NCBI RefSeq assembly: GCF_046296355.1
Contig: NZ_JBKBLM010000004.1
Location: 7,767 to 71,766 of the forward strand
Origin: Flavobacterium sp.
GTDB lineage: Bacteria > Bacteroidota > Bacteroidia > Flavobacteriales > Flavobacteriaceae
Direction of reading: 5' to 3'
DNA: 64,000 bases
Each line of letters starts with the position of its first letter. Within the stretch, counting starts at the first letter, position 1. Shown in pieces: positions 6,116-63,726 of the stretch. A model generated the notes under the pieces. It saw only the letters and a program-made list of their open reading frames with translations, had not been told where the DNA came from and searched no databases. A program made the position numbers and the translations under genes.

Positions 6116-6258
6116 AACGTTTTTTTTAAAATACCGATTTAGTGTAATTTTTTAACGATGATTGACTCAAAAAAGTTGGATTTACACCTTAATATAATAT
6201 GCTGTTTTTTACCATTATTTTGAATTAAAATTCCCAACACAAAAGACGCCAACTCATT

Positions 6259-6373
6259 AGCCCCGATTGCAGAGGAAATCAACTTTGTCAAAGTTTTGAA
6301 CTTTGACAAAGTTATTGCAACGGAAAGCGGGAACACGGATTCCAAGCGCGCCCAAACCTCTCGCTCCAAAACT
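6259..6373 (+). repeat. Flavo-1-like dispersed element, copy 1, with a nested palindrome in its loop
   Basis: AGCCCCGAT-TGCAGAGGAAATC-[AACTTTGTCAAAGTT TTG AACTTTGACAAAGTT]-ATTGCAACGGAAAGCGGGA; 3' tail resembles that of 40605-40696. Confidence 0.7.
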
Positions 6374-11319: not shown

Positions 11320-11354
11320 TTAGTATTAAGATTTGAGAATTAAGTATTAAGACT
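11320..11354 (+). repeat. Degenerate 7-mer tandem tract in the groES-groEL spacer
   Basis: TAGTATT AAGATTT GAGAATT AAGTATT AAGACT, starting 1 nt after the groES stop. Confidence 0.7.
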
Positions 11355-23053: not shown

Positions 23054-23083
23054 TTGCCTAATCAAAAAAGAAGATTATCTTTG
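23054..23083 (+). promoter_or_regulatory. Bacteroidota sigma70 promoter of rpsO
   Basis: TTG (23054-23056), 19 nt spacer, TATCTTTG (23076-23083). Confidence 0.8.
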
Positions 23084-23088
23084 CACAC

Positions 23089-23109
23089 GAATTGAGAAAA
23101 CCTCAATTC
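23089..23109 (+). promoter_or_regulatory. rpsO leader hairpin (candidate S15 autoregulatory leader)
   Basis: GAATTGAG-AAAAC-CTCAATTC, a perfect 8-bp stem at the predicted transcript 5' end. Confidence 0.55.
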
Positions 23110-23140
23110 ATACATAATAATCATTTAAAATAATATTGGA

Positions 23141-23410
23141 ATGTATTTAACTAAAGAAACAAAAGCTGAAATCTTCGCTAAACACGGAGGAAAAGCTGAA
23201 AACACTGGATCTGCTGAAGGGCAAATCGCTTTGTTTACTTTCAGAATCTCTCACTTAACAGAGCACTTGAAAAAAAATCGTCACGATTACAACACTGAGC
23301 GCTCGTTAGTACTTTTAGTAGGTAAAAGAAGAAGTCTTCTTGACTACTTGAAGAAAAAAGAGATTAACAGATATCGTGAGATTATCAAAGAATTAGGTAT
23401 TAGAAAATAA
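23141..23410 (+). CDS. rpsO: 30S ribosomal protein S15
   Basis: 'NTGSAEGQIALFT', 'HLKKNRHD', 'LVGKRRSLLDYL'. Confidence 0.98.
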   Translation: MYLTKETKAEIFAKHGGKAENTGSAEGQIALFTFRISHLTEHLKKNRHDYNTERSLVLLVGKRRSLLDYLKKKEINRYREIIKELGIRK

Positions 23411-27715: not shown

Positions 27716-27804
27716 GGGCGTTGCCTTCGGCCGGGCTATCCACTACAATCTTTTTGATTTCCCTTTGGGTAATCAAAAAGGATTTCCGTTCCTATCCCTA
27801 ACGC
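27716..27804 (-). repeat. Flavo-1-like dispersed element, copy 3
   Basis: Minus strand GCGTTAGGGAT-AGGAACGGAAATC-[hairpin]-GATTGTAGTGGATAG-CCC-GGCCGAAGGC-AACGC; same core as 6259-6373. Confidence 0.7.
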
Positions 27805-27830
27805 AATCTCTTTAAAACAGAATCTTTTGT

Positions 27831-39944: not shown

Positions 39945-40018
39945 TGACCCTGAAAGGAGTCGAACCTTCAACCGCTGGAGCCGAAATCCAGTGCTCTATC
40001 CAATTGAGCTACAGAGCC
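39945..40018 (-). tRNA. tRNA-Arg (anticodon UCG)
   Basis: Minus strand GGCTCTG TA GCTC AATTGGATA GAGC A CTGGA TT-TCG-GC TCCAG CGGTT GAAGG TTCGACT CCTTT CAGGGTC A; full cloverleaf, CCA not encoded. Confidence 0.96.
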
Positions 40019-40022
40019 ATTT

Positions 40023-40104
40023 TAAAGTTTGAAGTACGAAGTACAGAGTTTGAAGATAAATCTACTTCGTACTTCGTACTTCCAACTTCGCACTTTGTAC
40101 TTTT
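40023..40104. repeat. Inverted pair of 7-mer tandem arrays with no gene between them
   Basis: 5 units like YGAAGTW (40023-40057), AAATC spacer, 6 units like WACTTCG (40063-40104). Confidence 0.85.
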
Positions 40105-40106
40105 AA

Positions 40107-40556
40107 TTATGTCAATAATTTTTTAACAATAGTCGAAATGGTTTTACCATCGGTTTTACCGGCTAAGGCAGCTGAAGCTTTCCCCATAACTTGTCCCATG
40201 GATGCCATACCTGAGAAACCGCCTTCAGTGATAATTTTTGCAACCGTAGTTTCTACTTCTGCTTCAGATAATTGTGCCGGCAAAAACTTTTCGATTACGG
40301 CTACTTGAGCCAATTCGGGTGCGGCTAAGTCGGCACGGTTTTGCTCGGTATAAATGTTGGCGCTGTCTTTTCTTTGCTTAACCAAACGTTGCAACAATTT
40401 AATTTCATCTTCAGAAGATAAAGTATCGCTGGCACCGGCTTCGGTTTTGGCTAAAATGATGCCTGATTTTATGGCTCTTAAAGCTTCTAAAGCAACGGTG
40501 TCTTTGGCTCTCATGGCGTTTTTCATTTCGTCCATGATTTGTGTTTCTAAACTCAT
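40107..40556 (-). CDS. GatB/YqeY domain protein
   Basis: 'MKNAMRAKD...LRAIKS', 'VKQRKDSA', 'MGQVMG...GKTDGK'. Confidence 0.93.
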   Translation of the reverse strand: MSLETQIMDEMKNAMRAKDTVALEALRAIKSGIILAKTEAGASDTLSSEDEIKLLQRLVKQRKDSANIYTEQNRADLAAPELAQVAVIEKFLPAQLSEAEVETTVAKIITEGGFSGMASMGQVMGKASAALAGKTDGKTISTIVKKLLT

Positions 40557-40558
40557 CT

Positions 40559-40593
40559 TGATATTAGATTTTAAATATTAGATATTAAATATG
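40559..40593. repeat. Solo 7-mer tandem arm directly upstream of the yqeY start
   Basis: TGATATT AGATTTT AAATATT AGATATT AAATATG; same unit as the four-helix-bundle flanks. Confidence 0.8.
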
Positions 40594-40604
40594 ATTGGCT
40601 TTTA

Positions 40605-40696
40605 AGCCCCGATGGGAGCAAGTATCCTCGAAGAGATACTGCGGACAGCGGGAAAATGGATTACTGAAACTGCCCGAACCTTTCGCTTCCCAAACT
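40605..40696 (+). repeat. Flavo-1-like dispersed element, copy 2
   Basis: AGCCCCGAT-GGGAGCAAGTATC-CTCGAAGA-GATACTGCGGACAG-CGGGA plus a tail 'GCCCGAACCTTTCGCTTCCCAAACT' like copy 1. Confidence 0.7.
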
Positions 40697-40731
40697 AAAT
40701 TTGGGACTAGCCTAAAAAGCACTGCGAAGTT

Positions 40732-40773
40732 AAAAAAAATAACCCGAAAATCTCAGTGAAATTTTCGGGTTAT
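40732..40773 (-). terminator. Terminator ending the dcw cluster after ftsZ
   Basis: ATAACCCGAAAAT-9nt-ATTTTCGGGTTAT with an A8 run. Confidence 0.85.
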
Positions 40774-40796
40774 GCATTAAGGGCAAAAACTGTAGA

Positions 40797-46247: not shown

Positions 46248-46286
46248 TTAGTTACTGAGTAGCTGAGTCACTGTGTGGCTGAGTTA
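46248..46286 (-). repeat. 8-mer tandem tract filling the whole murG-murC spacer
   Basis: Minus strand: TAG|TAACTCAG CCACACAG TGACTCAG CTACTCAG TAACTAA|ATG. Confidence 0.8.
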
Positions 46287-47384: not shown

Positions 47385-48695
47385 TTATTTTCCTTTCAAA
47401 ATTGGTTCCAATGGATTGGCTTTATCTTCGATAGAATAGCTTTCCAATTCGGCTTGTAATGCTGCTTTTTCTGCTTCTTCCTCTTCTTGTAATTGTTTGT
47501 CAATCATTCGTTGCAAAGCGTCTTCGCGTTTTTGCTTGTCGGCTAATTCTTCAGCGATTTCTTCTTCTTTTTTCGTCACACTTAAAATAATGCCGAGTGC
47601 GATACAAGTCATCCAAATGGAGCTTCCACCAGAACTAATCAAGGGTAACGTTTGTCCGGTTACGGGTAATAATTCTACCGCTACTGCCATATTGGTCATC
47701 GCTTGAAAAATAATTGGGAAGCCTAAACCGATGACGACGAGTTTGCCAAAAAGCGAATTGGATTTATGAGCTGCGACAACGAATCGGAACAACAAAAGTA
47801 AGTACATAAACAAAACTAAAATCCCTCCGAACAATCCGTATTCTTCAACAATAATCGCATAAATGAAATCGGAAGATGATTGTGGCAAGAAATTTTTCTG
47901 CACACTTTTTCCCGGACCTAAACCGTAAACACCGCCTGATGCGATGGCGATTTTGGCTTTTTCGATTTGGTAATCATCTTCATCGGGCTTATCGCTGGTG
48001 AAATTATCGATACGGTTTATCCAAGTGTCTACACGATTAGGGAAAGCTTCCGGAAATGCTTTGGCTACTAAGATGAAAAATGTCAGTCCTATAATTCCGG
48101 CACCGATTATGATTCCAATATATTTCAATGGATATTTTCCAATAAAAGCCAACATCAAAACCATTGAAAATATCAACGCTGCAGTGGATAAATTGGCCGG
48201 TAGAATTAGGATTACCGTGATAAAAACCGGTGTCCATAAATCCCATAAAGAGGATTGAAAAGTGATGGGTGTTTCTCTCGTTTTGGATAAATATCTCGCT
48301 ACAAAAACGTATAAAACAATAGAAGCCAAAGCTGATGTTTGGAATGTAATTCCGATGAACGGAATCTGAATCCAACGGCTGGCATTGGCACCATCGATAA
48401 TCGTTCCTTTGAGTAATGTATAAATCAACAATACCCAAACGACAGGCAATAACAAACGTGAAATCGTTCGGAAATAGTGATACGGTACTTTGTGGATTTT
48501 GTAAAGAATAAAAAATCCAACTAATACTTGCGCGCCGTGTTTTAATAAATACGTCAACGCATTTCCTGAACCGTGACGCATGTAAGCCAAATTACTACTC
48601 GCACTAAACACCGGCATAAACGAAAACAACGCCAACAAGGCCACGAATGCCCAGATGACTTTATCTCCTTTTAAGCTGTGAATTAGTTCTTTCAT
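47385..48695 (-). CDS. ftsW: SEDS protein FtsW
   Basis: 'GASRWI', 'SDFIYAII', 'LPLISSGGSS'; dcw position. Confidence 0.93.
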   Translation of the reverse strand: MKELIHSLKGDKVIWAFVALLALFSFMPVFSASSNLAYMRHGSGNALTYLLKHGAQVLVGFFILYKIHKVPYHYFRTISRLLLPVVWVLLIYTLLKGTIIDGANASRWIQIPFIGITFQTSALASIVLYVFVARYLSKTRETPITFQSSLWDLWTPVFITVILILPANLSTAALIFSMVLMLAFIGKYPLKYIGIIIGAGIIGLTFFILVAKAFPEAFPNRVDTWINRIDNFTSDKPDEDDYQIEKAKIAIASGGVYGLGPGKSVQKNFLPQSSSDFIYAIIVEEYGLFGGILVLFMYLLLLFRFVVAAHKSNSLFGKLVVIGLGFPIIFQAMTNMAVAVELLPVTGQTLPLISSGGSSIWMTCIALGIILSVTKKEEEIAEELADKQKREDALQRMIDKQLQEEEEAEKAALQAELESYSIEDKANPLEPILKGK

Positions 48696-48697
48696 TT

Positions 48698-49131
48698 TAA
48701 TATTAAATTTTAGATTTTAGATTTTAGATATTAAATATTTATATGTTTTGTTGTTCAATCTGTTGTTTACTGTTTTTAAGGTTGAAACGAAAATTGCCAC
48801 TAGTTCACTTGATTCTTTTAGAGGAAATGCTAATTCAGATTTACTTATCCAGTTCATTTCGGCTATAATTTCAAGCCAAAATTGAGCTTCATCAACTTCT
48901 TCTAAAACAATATTCAACTTTGCTACAAACTCTTTATCACTTCTTGCTCTACAAACCGCTCTATAATTTGCTCCAACAGAAGTTGAGCTCTTGGCCAATT
49001 GATTAATGACAACTCTTGATGAAATTGAATTCGGCATTTTCTCGACTAAATTTAAAATCAGTAAAGAGAATTGCTTAGTTCTATTTTTTAACTCATCGTT
49101 TGTCATATTTGATATTTAATATCTAATATTT
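48698..49131 (-). mobile_element. Putative four-helix-bundle cassette: gene plus inverted 7-mer repeat arms, between murD and ftsW
   Basis: Left arm 48698-48739 (ARATWTT x6), right arm 49104-49131 (reverse-complement unit x4); 13-bp perfect inverted core. Confidence 0.6.
48717..49106 (-). CDS. Four-helix-bundle protein (23S rRNA IVP / TIGR02436 family, Avd-like fold)
   Basis: 'QLAKSSTSVGANY', 'EFVAKLNIVLEEVDEAQFWLE'; 129 aa. Confidence 0.9.
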   Translation of the reverse strand: MTNDELKNRTKQFSLLILNLVEKMPNSISSRVVINQLAKSSTSVGANYRAVCRARSDKEFVAKLNIVLEEVDEAQFWLEIIAEMNWISKSELAFPLKESSELVAIFVSTLKTVNNRLNNKTYKYLISKI

Positions 49132-49135
49132 TATA

Positions 49136-50470
49136 TTATAAATTCTGTACGGCTACTTTAAACTGGTTTCCTCTGTCTTCGTAGTTTTGGAACAAATCAA
49201 AACTCGCGCAAGCCGGAGATAATAAAACCGCGTCACCTTTTTCGGTTAAATGTTTGGCTGTGTTAACTGCGTCACGCATGTTGTCTACTTCTACCATCAT
49301 ATCGACTACATCACTGAACGCGTCGATGATTTTTTTGTTGTCTAAACCAAGGCAAATAATGGCTTTTACTTTTTCGCGAACTAACGGCATCAACTCGCTG
49401 TAATCGTTTCCTTTATCAACTCCGCCGACAATCCAAACGGTTGGAACCGTCATGCTGTCTAAAGCAAAGAAAGTCGCGTTGACATTGGTCGCTTTGCTAT
49501 CGTTGATGTACTGCACATTTTGAATTTTGAGTACTTTTTCCAAACGGTGTTCTACGCCTTGGAAATTGGACAAACTCTCGCGAATGGTTTGCTTTCTGAT
49601 TTTCATCAATTGGGCGACAGAAGTGGCAGCCATAGCGTTTTTCATGTTGTGTTTTCCTTCCAAAGAAATGTCCGCTGTTTTCATTTCAAATTCCTCGTTG
49701 TTGATGATGATGTCCATAGTATCGTTTTTTATAAAGGCTCCGTTTTCAAAAGTTTGTAATAGTGAAAATGGAATTAATTGTGCTTTTGTTTTGTTGTTTT
49801 GAAACCATTCTGAAATCGCTTCTTCATCGGCGTCATAGATGAAGAAATCGTCTTCAGTTTGGTTCATTGTTATTCTAAATTTTGATGCGATATAATTTTC
49901 ATATTTGTATTCATATCGATCCAAATGATCGGGACTGATGTTTGTTAGAATTGCGATGTCCGGTTTATAATTTATTATGCCGTCCAATTGAAAACTGCTT
50001 AATTCTAACACATAGCAATCGTAGTTTTCTTCCGCCACTTGCCAAGCAAAACTCTTTCCGATATTACCGCCTAATCCAACATTCAATCCGCCTTCTTTGA
50101 GCAAATGGTAAGTCAACATGGTTGTCGTTGTTTTACCGTTGCTTCCTGTGATTCCTATGGTTTTGGCGTCGGTAAACGGATAAGCAAATTCTATTTCGGA
50201 AATAACTGAAATTCCTTTTTCCAATAGTTTTTTAACCAATGGCGCTTTCTCAGGAATTCCGGGACTTTTCATGACTACATCGGCATTGAGGATTAATTCC
50301 TCTGTATGCTTTTCGTCTTCCCATTGAATTTCATATTTGTTAAGAACGTCTCTGTATTTTTCTTTTATTTTTCCCATATCGGATACGAAAACCTCGTATC
50401 CTTCTTTCTTTCCTAAAATGGCGGTTCCAACCCCACTTTCTCCTCCGCCAAGTACAACCAATCGCTTCAT
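49136..50470 (-). CDS. murD: UDP-N-acetylmuramoyl-L-alanine--D-glutamate ligase
   Basis: Start set at '[13 protein letters not shown]'; 'GSNGKTTT', 'ELSSFQL', 'NDSKATN', 'SPACASFD'. Confidence 0.97.
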   Translation of the reverse strand: MKRLVVLGGGESGVGTAILGKKEGYEVFVSDMGKIKEKYRDVLNKYEIQWEDEKHTEELILNADVVMKSPGIPEKAPLVKKLLEKGISVISEIEFAYPFTDAKTIGITGSNGKTTTTMLTYHLLKEGGLNVGLGGNIGKSFAWQVAEENYDCYVLELSSFQLDGIINYKPDIAILTNISPDHLDRYEYKYENYIASKFRITMNQTEDDFFIYDADEEAISEWFQNNKTKAQLIPFSLLQTFENGAFIKNDTMDIIINNEEFEMKTADISLEGKHNMKNAMAATSVAQLMKIRKQTIRESLSNFQGVEHRLEKVLKIQNVQYINDSKATNVNATFFALDSMTVPTVWIVGGVDKGNDYSELMPLVREKVKAIICLGLDNKKIIDAFSDVVDMMVEVDNMRDAVNTAKHLTEKGDAVLLSPACASFDLFQNYEDRGNQFKVAVQNL

Positions 50471-63590: not shown

Positions 63591-63630
63591 TAGATTGTTA
63601 GATTGTTAGATTATTAGATTGTTAGAAATC
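63591..63630 (-). repeat. 8-mer tandem tract ending 2 nt before the dnaG start codon
   Basis: Plus strand TAGATTGT TAGATTGT TAGATTAT TAGATTGT TAGAAATC. Confidence 0.85.
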
Positions 63631-63666
63631 TTGAAAAGAAATCAAAGAGGGTAAATTTACACATTC

Positions 63667-63692
63667 AGAATTTAAAATTTAAAATTTAAAAT
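63667..63692. repeat. Short 7-mer tract next to the terminator upstream of dnaG
   Basis: AGAATTT AAAATTT AAAATTT AAAAT. Confidence 0.55.
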
Positions 63693-63726
63693 AAAAAAAA
63701 GATGCTCCATTGCTGAAACATCTTTT
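63693..63726 (-). terminator. Intrinsic terminator with a GCAA tetraloop
   Basis: Minus strand AAAAGATGTTTCA-GCAA-TGGAGCATCTTTT plus T run. Confidence 0.85.

Follow-up and report, generated by a model that had tools for sequence, protein, structure and literature searches.

Intervening sequences (IVSs) of bacterial 23S rRNA are the closest described counterparts of the element analyzed here. In Coxiella burnetii, the terminal inverted repeats of the 23S IVS form a 28-bp stem whose loop contains an open reading frame (ORF) for an S23p protein of the PF05635 family (Warrier et al. 2016, PMC4990558). Tandem GACAGAT heptamers, three to four depending on the strain, are located just upstream of its ATG, and RNase III cuts the IVS at the start of the first of these repeats (PMC4990558). 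The Coxiella IVS occupies helix 45, and 23S rRNA IVSs with an S23p ORF were also reported from Leptospira, Brucella, and Haemophilus; according to an older proposal, IVSs are remnants of mobile elements (cited in PMC4990558). We analyzed 64,000 nt of low-GC (37%) Flavobacterium DNA of hot-spring metagenome origin (contig NZ_JBKBLM010000004.1, positions 7,767 to 71,766; this whole stretch is referred to as the window). In the window, a gene encoding a four-helix-bundle (4HB) protein of the same family was located between murD and ftsW and was enclosed by two complementary arrays of tandem heptamers. We judged the chances to be slightly better than even that this element was an IVS-type 4HB cassette resident in an mRNA, namely the transcript of the dcw operon. 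The anatomy of the locus and its homology supported such an IVS-like reading, whereas the mechanism outlined below was a proposal.

According to the ORF list and Pfam matches, the dcw cluster was on the minus strand in the order murE, mraY, murD, the 4HB gene, ftsW, murG, and murC, continuing to ftsZ. An earlier note, made from the letters of this DNA, had placed a four-helix-bundle gene between murD and ftsW inside the operon, and profile searches agreed: the protein matched PF05635 (23S_rRNA_IVP) with an E-value of 2e-13 and 50.8 bits (cut-off 33.8) and TIGR02436 ("four helix bundle protein") with 2e-21 and 76.1 bits (cut-off 24), over 107 of the 109 positions of the profile. In a sequence comparison, chain A of 2RLD was similar to residues 3-115 of the protein (E-value 2.4e-16). 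The 2RLD entry lists five identical chains, and the Xanthomonas homologue of the family is a homopentameric toroid (cited in PMC4990558). The gene was present in a single copy within the window. Together with a 5' heptamer array and the complementary 3' array it formed a cassette of ~440 nt that filled the murD-ftsW spacer in the sense orientation (Table 1). The cassette encoded no ORF besides the 4HB gene, and neither in it nor adjoining it did the ORF list and Pfam reveal a transposase, integrase, or nuclease. An Rfam search returned no family and no rRNA at the cassette, which was thus not placed in a 23S rRNA helix. Since its site was between two protein-coding genes, we considered it a variant rather than a classical IVS.

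Tandem Repeats Finder detected a period of 7 with 4.7 copies at 49105-49137 and 5.9 copies at 48694-48733. These were the period-7 arms that the earlier note had described on both sides of the gene, and the perfect inverted pair it had noticed there was indeed 13 bp long. The arms reached slightly beyond the span it had assigned to the element (48698-49131), to the murD stop at 49138 on one side and to 48696 on the other. The arrays made up the 29 nt between the murD stop and the ORF, the 21 nt between the ORF and the ftsW ATG, and the final 27 nt of the ORF. Accordingly, the ATG of the 4HB gene directly followed the last unit of the 5' arm, while the last nine codons and the TAA were inside the 3' arm. 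The inverted pair could be extended to 33 nt with 26 of the positions paired (79%; 48706-48738 with 49112-49144), and 19 of 22 positions were paired in another register, whose anchors were the murD stop and the ftsW AUG.

Table 1. Coordinates of the 4HB cassette and related features (positions in the window, except for the last line, where positions refer to the named loci of relatives).
Feature	Position	Strand	Basis or remark
4HB protein gene, 129 aa	48717..49106	-	PF05635 / TIGR02436; closest solved structure 2RLD
murD stop codon TAA, base of the stem	49136..49138	-	ORF list, Pfam
ftsW start codon ATG, directly 3' of the stem	48693..48695	-	ORF list, Pfam
5' (upstream) arm, about 4 heptamer units, TAATATAAAATATTAGATATTAAATATCAAAT on the - strand	49107..49138	-	Tandem Repeats Finder, inverted-repeat arms
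3' (downstream) arm, about 6 heptamer units, ATCTAAA type	48696..48746	-	ends 0-2 nt before the ftsW AUG
Perfect 13-bp inverted-repeat half AGATATTAAATAT	48726..48738	.	pairs with ATATTTAATATCT
Perfect 13-bp inverted-repeat half ATATTTAATATCT	49112..49124	.	pairs with AGATATTAAATAT
C-terminal extension TYKYLISKI (9 codons) and TAA, lineage-specific, inside the 3' arm	48717..48746	-	alignment of 12 orthologues
Third array of the same arm type, oriented as a 3' arm, just ahead of the yqeY start	40561..40592	-	18-mer ATATTAGATATTAAATAT
Paralogous cassettes at mraY-murD	L052 1640-2200; L066 1680-2210; L081/L087 about 620-1100

The dcw cassette resembled the Coxiella IVS in having a sense-oriented PF05635 ORF within a stem-loop (stem of 28 bp there and 22-38 bp here), tandem heptamers of variable copy number in the arm upstream of the ATG, and a sporadic distribution among relatives. 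However, the host transcript was rRNA in Coxiella and the mRNA of the dcw operon here, and the stem of the dcw cassette closed at the murD stop and the ftsW start. The S23p gene of Coxiella is decaying and probably untranslated, whereas the Flavobacterium protein was under strong purifying selection. RNase III cleavage has been demonstrated for the Coxiella IVS and would be a prediction for the dcw cassette. Since the stem, the heptamers, and the ORF family were shared with an IVS that is cut by RNase III, we interpreted the window element as an IVS-type cassette in an mRNA.

Another described member of the family is Avd, the accessory variability determinant of diversity-generating retroelements (DGRs), which forms a pentamer and binds an RNA encoded next to its own gene. 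It is a small basic four-helix-bundle protein of the same Pfam family as the window protein. However, a reverse transcriptase and template/variable repeats are adjacent to Avd, while neither was adjacent to the window 4HB gene, whose immediate neighbors encoded MurD and FtsW. To our knowledge, heptamer arms are not a described feature of Avd, and we know of no function assigned to PF05635 outside DGRs. A phage search for Avd-type controls returned only two unannotated hits, which were not used.

Taken alone, the signal in the window was modest. The 4HB gene scored 15 for flank-to-flank inverted repeats, whereas dinucleotide shuffles averaged 8.5 (p about 0.002); this was the highest score among the 54 window genes, the next best being 10. 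In addition, the arms were paired in both the minimum free energy (MFE) and the centroid folds of the minus strand, with ~26 expected pairs in the ensemble. It could be argued that such an inverted match is a chance product of an A+T-rich, low-complexity spacer, since the arms were almost pure A/T, their duplex was worth about -9 kcal/mol, and the fold of the whole region did not differ significantly in stability from those of shuffled sequences. The shuffle test, the first rank among 54, and above all the stem in all 14 orthologous loci analyzed refuted this explanation, to which we gave practically no credence. Thus, it was the relatives that made the single-locus signal strong.

A genome scan with FtsW yielded 80 Flavobacterium loci, about 77 of which were usable for the murD-ftsW spacer. 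An orthologous 4HB gene (60-94% identical) was found in this spacer in 15 of the ~77, including two broken copies with an in-frame stop (L024) and a frameshift (L073). The spacers that lacked the gene were 16-181 nt long and included those of the five closest relatives of the window. Therefore, the possibility raised in the earlier note, that the gene resides between murD and ftsW in all relatives irrespective of repeats, was not borne out. It was absent from about 80% of them, including the closest, and wherever it was present the arms were present as well (14 occupied loci were analyzed for arms, the window counted among them). In all 14, complementary heptamer arrays were located directly after the murD stop and directly before the ftsW AUG. 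The stems were 22-50 nt long with 82-100% Watson-Crick pairs (38 of 38 in L052), starting 0-6 nt from the first base of the murD stop and ending 0-5 nt from the ftsW AUG. The arms were paired in the MFE and centroid folds of the window, and at all 14 loci the stem was present in the MFE structure and the ensemble of every full-length fold, with 16-40 pairs.

Overall, the arms were complementary in the Watson-Crick sense at 90% of 1203 positions, although their sequence was not conserved. Namely, it drifted by clade from TTTTAGA/TCTAAAA to TTTCTGA/TCAGAAA and then to ATATTAGAT/ATCTAATAT, and the partner arm followed each time. Such matched changes were exemplified by TTTCTGATT/AATCAGAAA and ATATTAGAT/ATCTAATAT. 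The number of heptamer units varied among orthologues, and some arms contained G/C and were still paired at up to 38 of 38 positions. An RNAalifold consensus of the concatenated arms recovered 10 pairs, five of them with double changes; the periodic arms lost their register in the alignment, and pairing was therefore scored locus by locus. A matrix of cognate and non-cognate arms computed with RNAduplex was dropped as a test because long arrays and unequal flanks produced strong non-cognate values.

The earlier note described the arms as supplying the start and the stop of the gene, but this layout was not conserved at murD-ftsW. All 12 aligned orthologues ended with ...NNK/NK, typically with ...RLNNK* at 119-121 aa. 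The window gene had lost this ancestral stop and read nine codons into the arm, so that the arm-supplied stop was a lineage accident. Moreover, the ATG was 35-45 nt inside the arm in one clade.

The 4HB protein is functional and under purifying selection, as indicated by dN/dS values of 0.03-0.14 between orthologues at dS of 0.7 to more than 2. Its identity tracked that of MurD and FtsW. All close homologues (at least 65% identical) checked in a collection of 5.8 billion proteins were located at the murD-ftsW site. Since these homologues shared one site and the divergence of the protein followed that of the host, there was no sign of recent movement. At the same time, the presence of the cassette was scattered on the MurD+FtsW tree, with at least 12 state changes over 75 taxa. 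These comparisons indicate that the cassette is ancient at murD-ftsW in Flavobacterium and vertically inherited, and that it has been lost repeatedly by microhomology deletion. Namely, L007 corresponded to L006 deleted between two copies of the 9-bp repeat ATCTAAAAT, and L051 to L048 deleted between two copies of TAATAT, while the short spacer of L037 was a similar clean deletion derivative. Each of the three kept only the distal 3' arm before ftsW. The near-palindromic arms themselves supply the short direct repeats between which the cassette is deleted. Environmental sequences contained further alleles. A freshwater metagenome contig (run X2; window 48732 / 49112) shared the arms, but an 11-nt loop (CCGCATTTGCC) replaced the ORF, and a relative in metatranscriptome X24 (window 48697 / 49157) had a 32-nt spacer allele. 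The existence of such alternative alleles pointed to a standing presence/absence polymorphism in nature.

A 4HB paralogue with ~30% identity was found at the mraY-murD junction in L052, L066, and L081-L087. In sister species, the empty junction consisted of overlapping or abutting codons (TAATG/TAAATG, also TAGATG) with no spacer, and the cassette was inserted precisely between the stop and the ATG. It was patchy among close relatives, its empty sites had no footprint, and a comparison of occupied and empty mraY-murD junctions revealed no target-site duplication. The arms of the paralogue were AATTAAAAATTGAGAATTAAAA / TTTTAATTCTCAATTTTTAATT (AATTGAG type) in one lineage and AATTACG / CGTAATT in the other.

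When the mraY-murD paralogue was compared with plasmids by tblastn, homologues with 34-56% identity were found in Cyanobacteria, Bacteroidota, Spirochaetota, Bacillota, and Chloroflexota. Nineteen distinct plasmid-borne 4HB loci were examined for arms. In fifteen, clear inverted arrays surrounded the gene, and every locus had a heptamer of its own; three had weak or complex arrays and one had none. The heptamers included TTAGTGA (x16), ACTGGTC (x13), AATTCAA/TTTTGAA (x4, perfect), GTCGGAG/CTCCGAC, AATTCGT, AATTCGC, AAGTAAA, GATGAAG, CTCTCCG, AATCCCC+AATCGTA, and TTTTAGA. The modal plasmid arm had 4-5 units (four units being about 28 nt), and the 3' arm began at the 4HB stop codon in about half of the loci. 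Most of these cassettes were co-oriented within operons encoding an RND pump, type I restriction-modification, helicase-methylase, or DUF1156-HEPN proteins.

Across the 80 Flavobacterium loci, the arm enclosure score was 18-38 for 13 of the 15 4HB ORFs, compared with a maximum of 13 for 496 other genes, and long inverted-arm enclosure was absent from every other gene among about 550 tested. On these comparisons, the inverted-arm architecture belongs to the 4HB family and not to the murD-ftsW site, and the plasmid arms show that it is general across at least five bacterial phyla. A family-wide, cross-phylum cassette of this kind appears to be undescribed in open-access text, where we found no paper linking heptamer arrays with 4HB genes or describing 4HB cassettes in operons. 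With this architecture, IVS-like elements are not confined to rRNA but also occur in essential operons such as dcw, in restriction-modification operons, and beside cas genes. For annotation purposes, it offers an explanation for fast-changing intercistronic spacers in Flavobacterium.

Many of the plasmid-borne cassettes were located in defence operons: between cas2 and cas1 in antisense orientation (L102, L105), adjoining cas1 (L095), between hsdS and hsdR (L096), and in helicase-methylase (L107, L104, L094) or DUF1156-HEPN (L108, L109) operons. The Monoglobus copy (L096) was a pseudogene with its arms still present. In L108 (Ca. Chlorohelix plasmid, 170-800), the 4HB gene was between two direct copies of a ~100-nt module, unlike the simple inverted arms elsewhere; the module was a heptamer hairpin, GGATTTTAGATT ... 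AATCCAAAATCTAAAAT. In Nostoc flagelliforme, three plasmids had identical 4HB copies, which were considered for delimiting a mobile unit but belonged to larger segmental duplications and were uninformative.

An alternative is that the element acts at the level of DNA. In such a case, the arms would be terminal inverted repeats or cruciform ends of a formerly mobile cassette that was moved in trans, they would have no RNA role, and their complementarity would be kept by DNA processes such as quasi-palindrome correction and slippage. The patchy distribution, the second cassette placed exactly between stop and ATG, the high instability of array copy number (x16, x13), and the absence of a G:U bias in the stems all fitted this explanation, as did the older proposal on the origin of IVSs. 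Furthermore, hairpins with the same heptamers recurred in different spacers and species (GTTTCAA/TTGAAAC at murD-ftsW and murG-murC). However, there was neither a transposase, integrase, or nuclease in or beside the cassette nor a target-site duplication, and the arms differed between paralogues, unlike the ends of insertion sequences (IS). All homologues with at least 65% identity remained at one site and diverged with the host, and the multi-copy Nostoc examples were segmental duplications. In addition, the arms were placed relative to translation signals (stop and start codons), a placement for which a DNA-only element would have no need. We therefore rated this explanation as distinctly unlikely. 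Repetitive extragenic palindromic (REP)/BIME-type palindromes and miniature inverted-repeat transposable elements (MITEs) are likewise dispersed intercistronic hairpins in operons with a fast turnover of spacer alleles, but they have a conserved sequence recognized by a cognate transposase (RAYT or IS). The 4HB cassettes had no transposase and kept only the 7-nt periodicity and the complementarity of the arms, while the sequence differed from locus to locus, between paralogues and even between orthologues. Thus, they did not belong to the transposable elements or MITEs.

Most of the empty murD-ftsW spacers of the relatives contained a short-loop hairpin whose arms were tandem 7-mers of unrelated sequence (GGTTATT, CAGCTTT, ACGAAAC, TTGAAAC). 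In 753 kb of Flavobacterium DNA, a period of 7 dominated the intergenic tandem arrays (65 of 131), while arrays in coding regions peaked at 9 and 12, and similar arrays were found in other spacers of the window. Heptamer hairpins might then be a generic intercistronic device of Flavobacterium, acting in translational coupling or in mRNA stabilization or processing, with the 4HB gene a mere passenger in the loop. We considered this very improbable, since the mraY-murD cassette carried its arms into a junction that otherwise had no spacer (TAATG), distant 4HB genes in other phyla and contexts had arms of their own, and long complementary-arm enclosure was exclusive to 4HB ORFs among the genes tested.

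We return to the IVS-type cassette and how it might operate in the transcript. Metatranscriptome contigs of relatives crossed both the murD-4HB and the 4HB-ftsW junctions without interruption, and hence unprocessed read-through RNA exists. A scan of the cassette found no terminator and no Bacteroidetes -7 box (TAnnTTTG), while a sigma-70 promoter scan is not meaningful for Bacteroidota. The cassette was thus shown to be co-transcribed in the dcw operon in sense with murD and ftsW. A joint in the window's own metagenome that skipped from 48717 to 49105 was rejected as evidence of excision, because it had only 21 letters on one side, in repeated arm sequence, so that the alignment or assembly was ambiguous. 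In the proposed mechanism, the arms would pair in the polycistronic transcript and form a helix of about 20-38 bp. At its base, the murD stop would face the nucleotides that immediately precede the ftsW AUG; the ORF would thereby be looped out and the stop and start codons juxtaposed. By analogy with the 23S rRNA IVSs of the same family, this helix would be a likely substrate of RNase III, for which it is long enough. It would also bury the translation initiation regions of ftsW and of the 4HB gene, and a ribosome terminating at murD, or RNase III, would open it from this masking state. The earlier note had suggested an mRNA analogue of an IVS. Its anatomical and homology parts gained support from the co-varying arms at 14 of 14 loci and from the distant paralogues, while in vivo pairing of the arms, their cleavage by RNase III, a coupling of translation, and a masked ftsW were inferred by analogy and should be read as predictions. 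An excised or circular RNA and register slippage as a switch for ftsW, also raised in that note, gained no support here and are likewise predictions.

Several observations weighed against this interpretation. The window stem was the weakest of all orthologues, its arm duplex being about -9.4 kcal/mol with A-U and G-U pairs throughout, and the fold of the whole region (z = -1.5) was not significantly more stable than those of shuffled sequences. Mismatches in the stems comprised 22 G:U and 33 A:C, without a sense-strand excess of G:U, so that DNA-level processes could equally maintain the complementarity; for RNA-level selection on the stems, this was a neutral to mildly negative result. The RNA contigs indicated read-through only, and assembled contigs carry no information on ends. 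Four of the 19 plasmid cassettes were antisense to both neighbors, two of them between cas2 and cas1, and still kept their arms, which therefore cannot depend on a host operon transcript. As these cases show, it is the cassette itself, and not a host operon, that the arms serve. Moreover, since ORF-less heptamer hairpins were present in the same spacer of most relatives, the stem may have some function unconnected with the ORF. Finally, the 7-nt periodicity of the arms is not accounted for by an IVS-type model.

Alternatively, the arrays might primarily be binding sites of the 4HB pentamer, as an Avd-like nucleic-acid binder, with one heptamer per subunit. The gene would then lie between its own autoregulatory operators, such arrays before other genes would make up a small post-transcriptional regulon, and the complementarity of the two arms would be secondary or would form a competing structure. 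The modal arm of 4-5 heptamers and the five identical chains listed for 2RLD were consistent with this possibility. Related proteins shared a heptamer while clades differed (GTCGGAG, AATTCGY, AAGTAAA, AATTCAA, TTTTAGA), and TTTTAGA was common to proteins from Flavobacterium, Gloeocapsa, and Chlorohelix, three phyla, that were only 40-47% identical. Solo 3' arms also persisted before ftsW after loss of the cassette, and the window contained a third array of the ATATTAGATATTAAATAT type just upstream of yqeY. With up to three mismatches allowed, ATATTAGATATTAAATAT occurred within the 64 kb only at the two arms and at this third place (9 overlapping hits versus 0.26 expected). The array preceded yqeY (40107-40556, minus strand, Pfam match) without an ORF or a partner arm, and it may be a solitary arm left behind by a lost cassette or another target of the same system. 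On the other hand, L094 and L109 were 69% identical and yet had different heptamers, and the heptamer drifted within Flavobacterium from TTTTAGA to ATATTAGAT/ATTAAAT while the protein stayed 68-94% identical. The sharing of heptamers by close homologues may reflect common descent of the loci, and near-perfect complementarity between arms is unnecessary for simple operator arrays. On balance, a primary role as binding sites was possible but unlikely.

In the genomes of Cyanobacteria and Bacteroidota, heptamer repeats have been known as an orphan feature for decades. TAACTGA repeats were described in intergenic regions of Beggiatoaceae, Cyanobacteria, and Bacteroidetes (MacGregor 2015, PMC4679880), and in Nostoc 7120, TTTTGAA arrays precede 21 genes, their "interacting partner" being unidentified (bioRxiv 10.1101/2022.06.06.494920). 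Like the arms, these orphan repeats (short tandemly repeated repetitive (STRR), TAACTGA, and TTTTGAA types) are intergenic tandem 7-mers of 2-6 or more units in the same phyla, and they typically end a few nucleotides before a start codon. The TTTTGAA/AATTCAA heptamer of the Nostoc 7120 arrays was exactly the arm of the 4HB cassettes of Nostoc flagelliforme and Aulosira. However, descriptions of the orphan repeats present them as direct repeats and link no gene to them, while here inverted pairs enclosed one gene family. It is conceivable, although we regard it as speculative and rather doubtful, that PF05635 4HB proteins are the missing partners of the orphan repeats in Cyanobacteria, Bacteroidota, and other phyla, each paralogue being encoded between inverted arrays of its own cognate heptamer, binding these arrays, and controlling a regulon (here, ftsW and yqeY). 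If so, they would control translation or processing through arrays before other genes, with about one heptamer per pentamer subunit, and rRNA IVSs and the Avd of DGRs would be special cases of one RNA-binding module. The family is very large, with 7,761 clusters at 50% identity reached by a single phmmer search. Since 4HB genes and heptamer arrays are coupled across phyla in the layout of rRNA IVSs, one common hypothesis may serve both puzzles: the elements may be processed by RNase III, the 4HB pentamer may bind RNA in a heptamer-specific manner, or both.

Other repeats were noticed in the window and its relatives. A hairpin with tandem-heptamer arms (GAAGTAC / CTTCGTA, x4-5) was located at 40020-40102, between a tRNA gene (39945-40018, minus strand) and the 3' end of yqeY. 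On the other side of that gene, a non-coding, G+C-rich, structured-looking region of ~200 nt (40593-40796) separated the ftsZ terminator hairpin from the yqeY array and had no Rfam family at the gathering threshold. The murG-murC spacer of the window (46248-46286) had CTCAGYNA 8-mers in direct repeat, while in relatives (L009, L016, L020, L024, L027, L047, L051) it contained 7/8-mer hairpins of the types CAATGNC/TTGACAT and GTTTCAA/TTGAAAC. TTGAAAC hairpins were also present at murD-ftsW in L057, L065, L070, and L071, indicating that hairpin families were dispersed between spacers and species. Four copies of ATTAAGA were located at 11325-11352, just upstream of a putative groEL-like ORF, and TAGATTGT (x4.5) together with AAATTTA (x5.6) at 63591-63698, near the end of the window. 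Rfam additionally identified two copies of the Flavo-1 sRNA (6255-6338, plus strand, and 27725-27807, minus strand) and an S15-Flavobacteria ribosomal leader (23076-23143, plus strand), all unrelated to the cassette.

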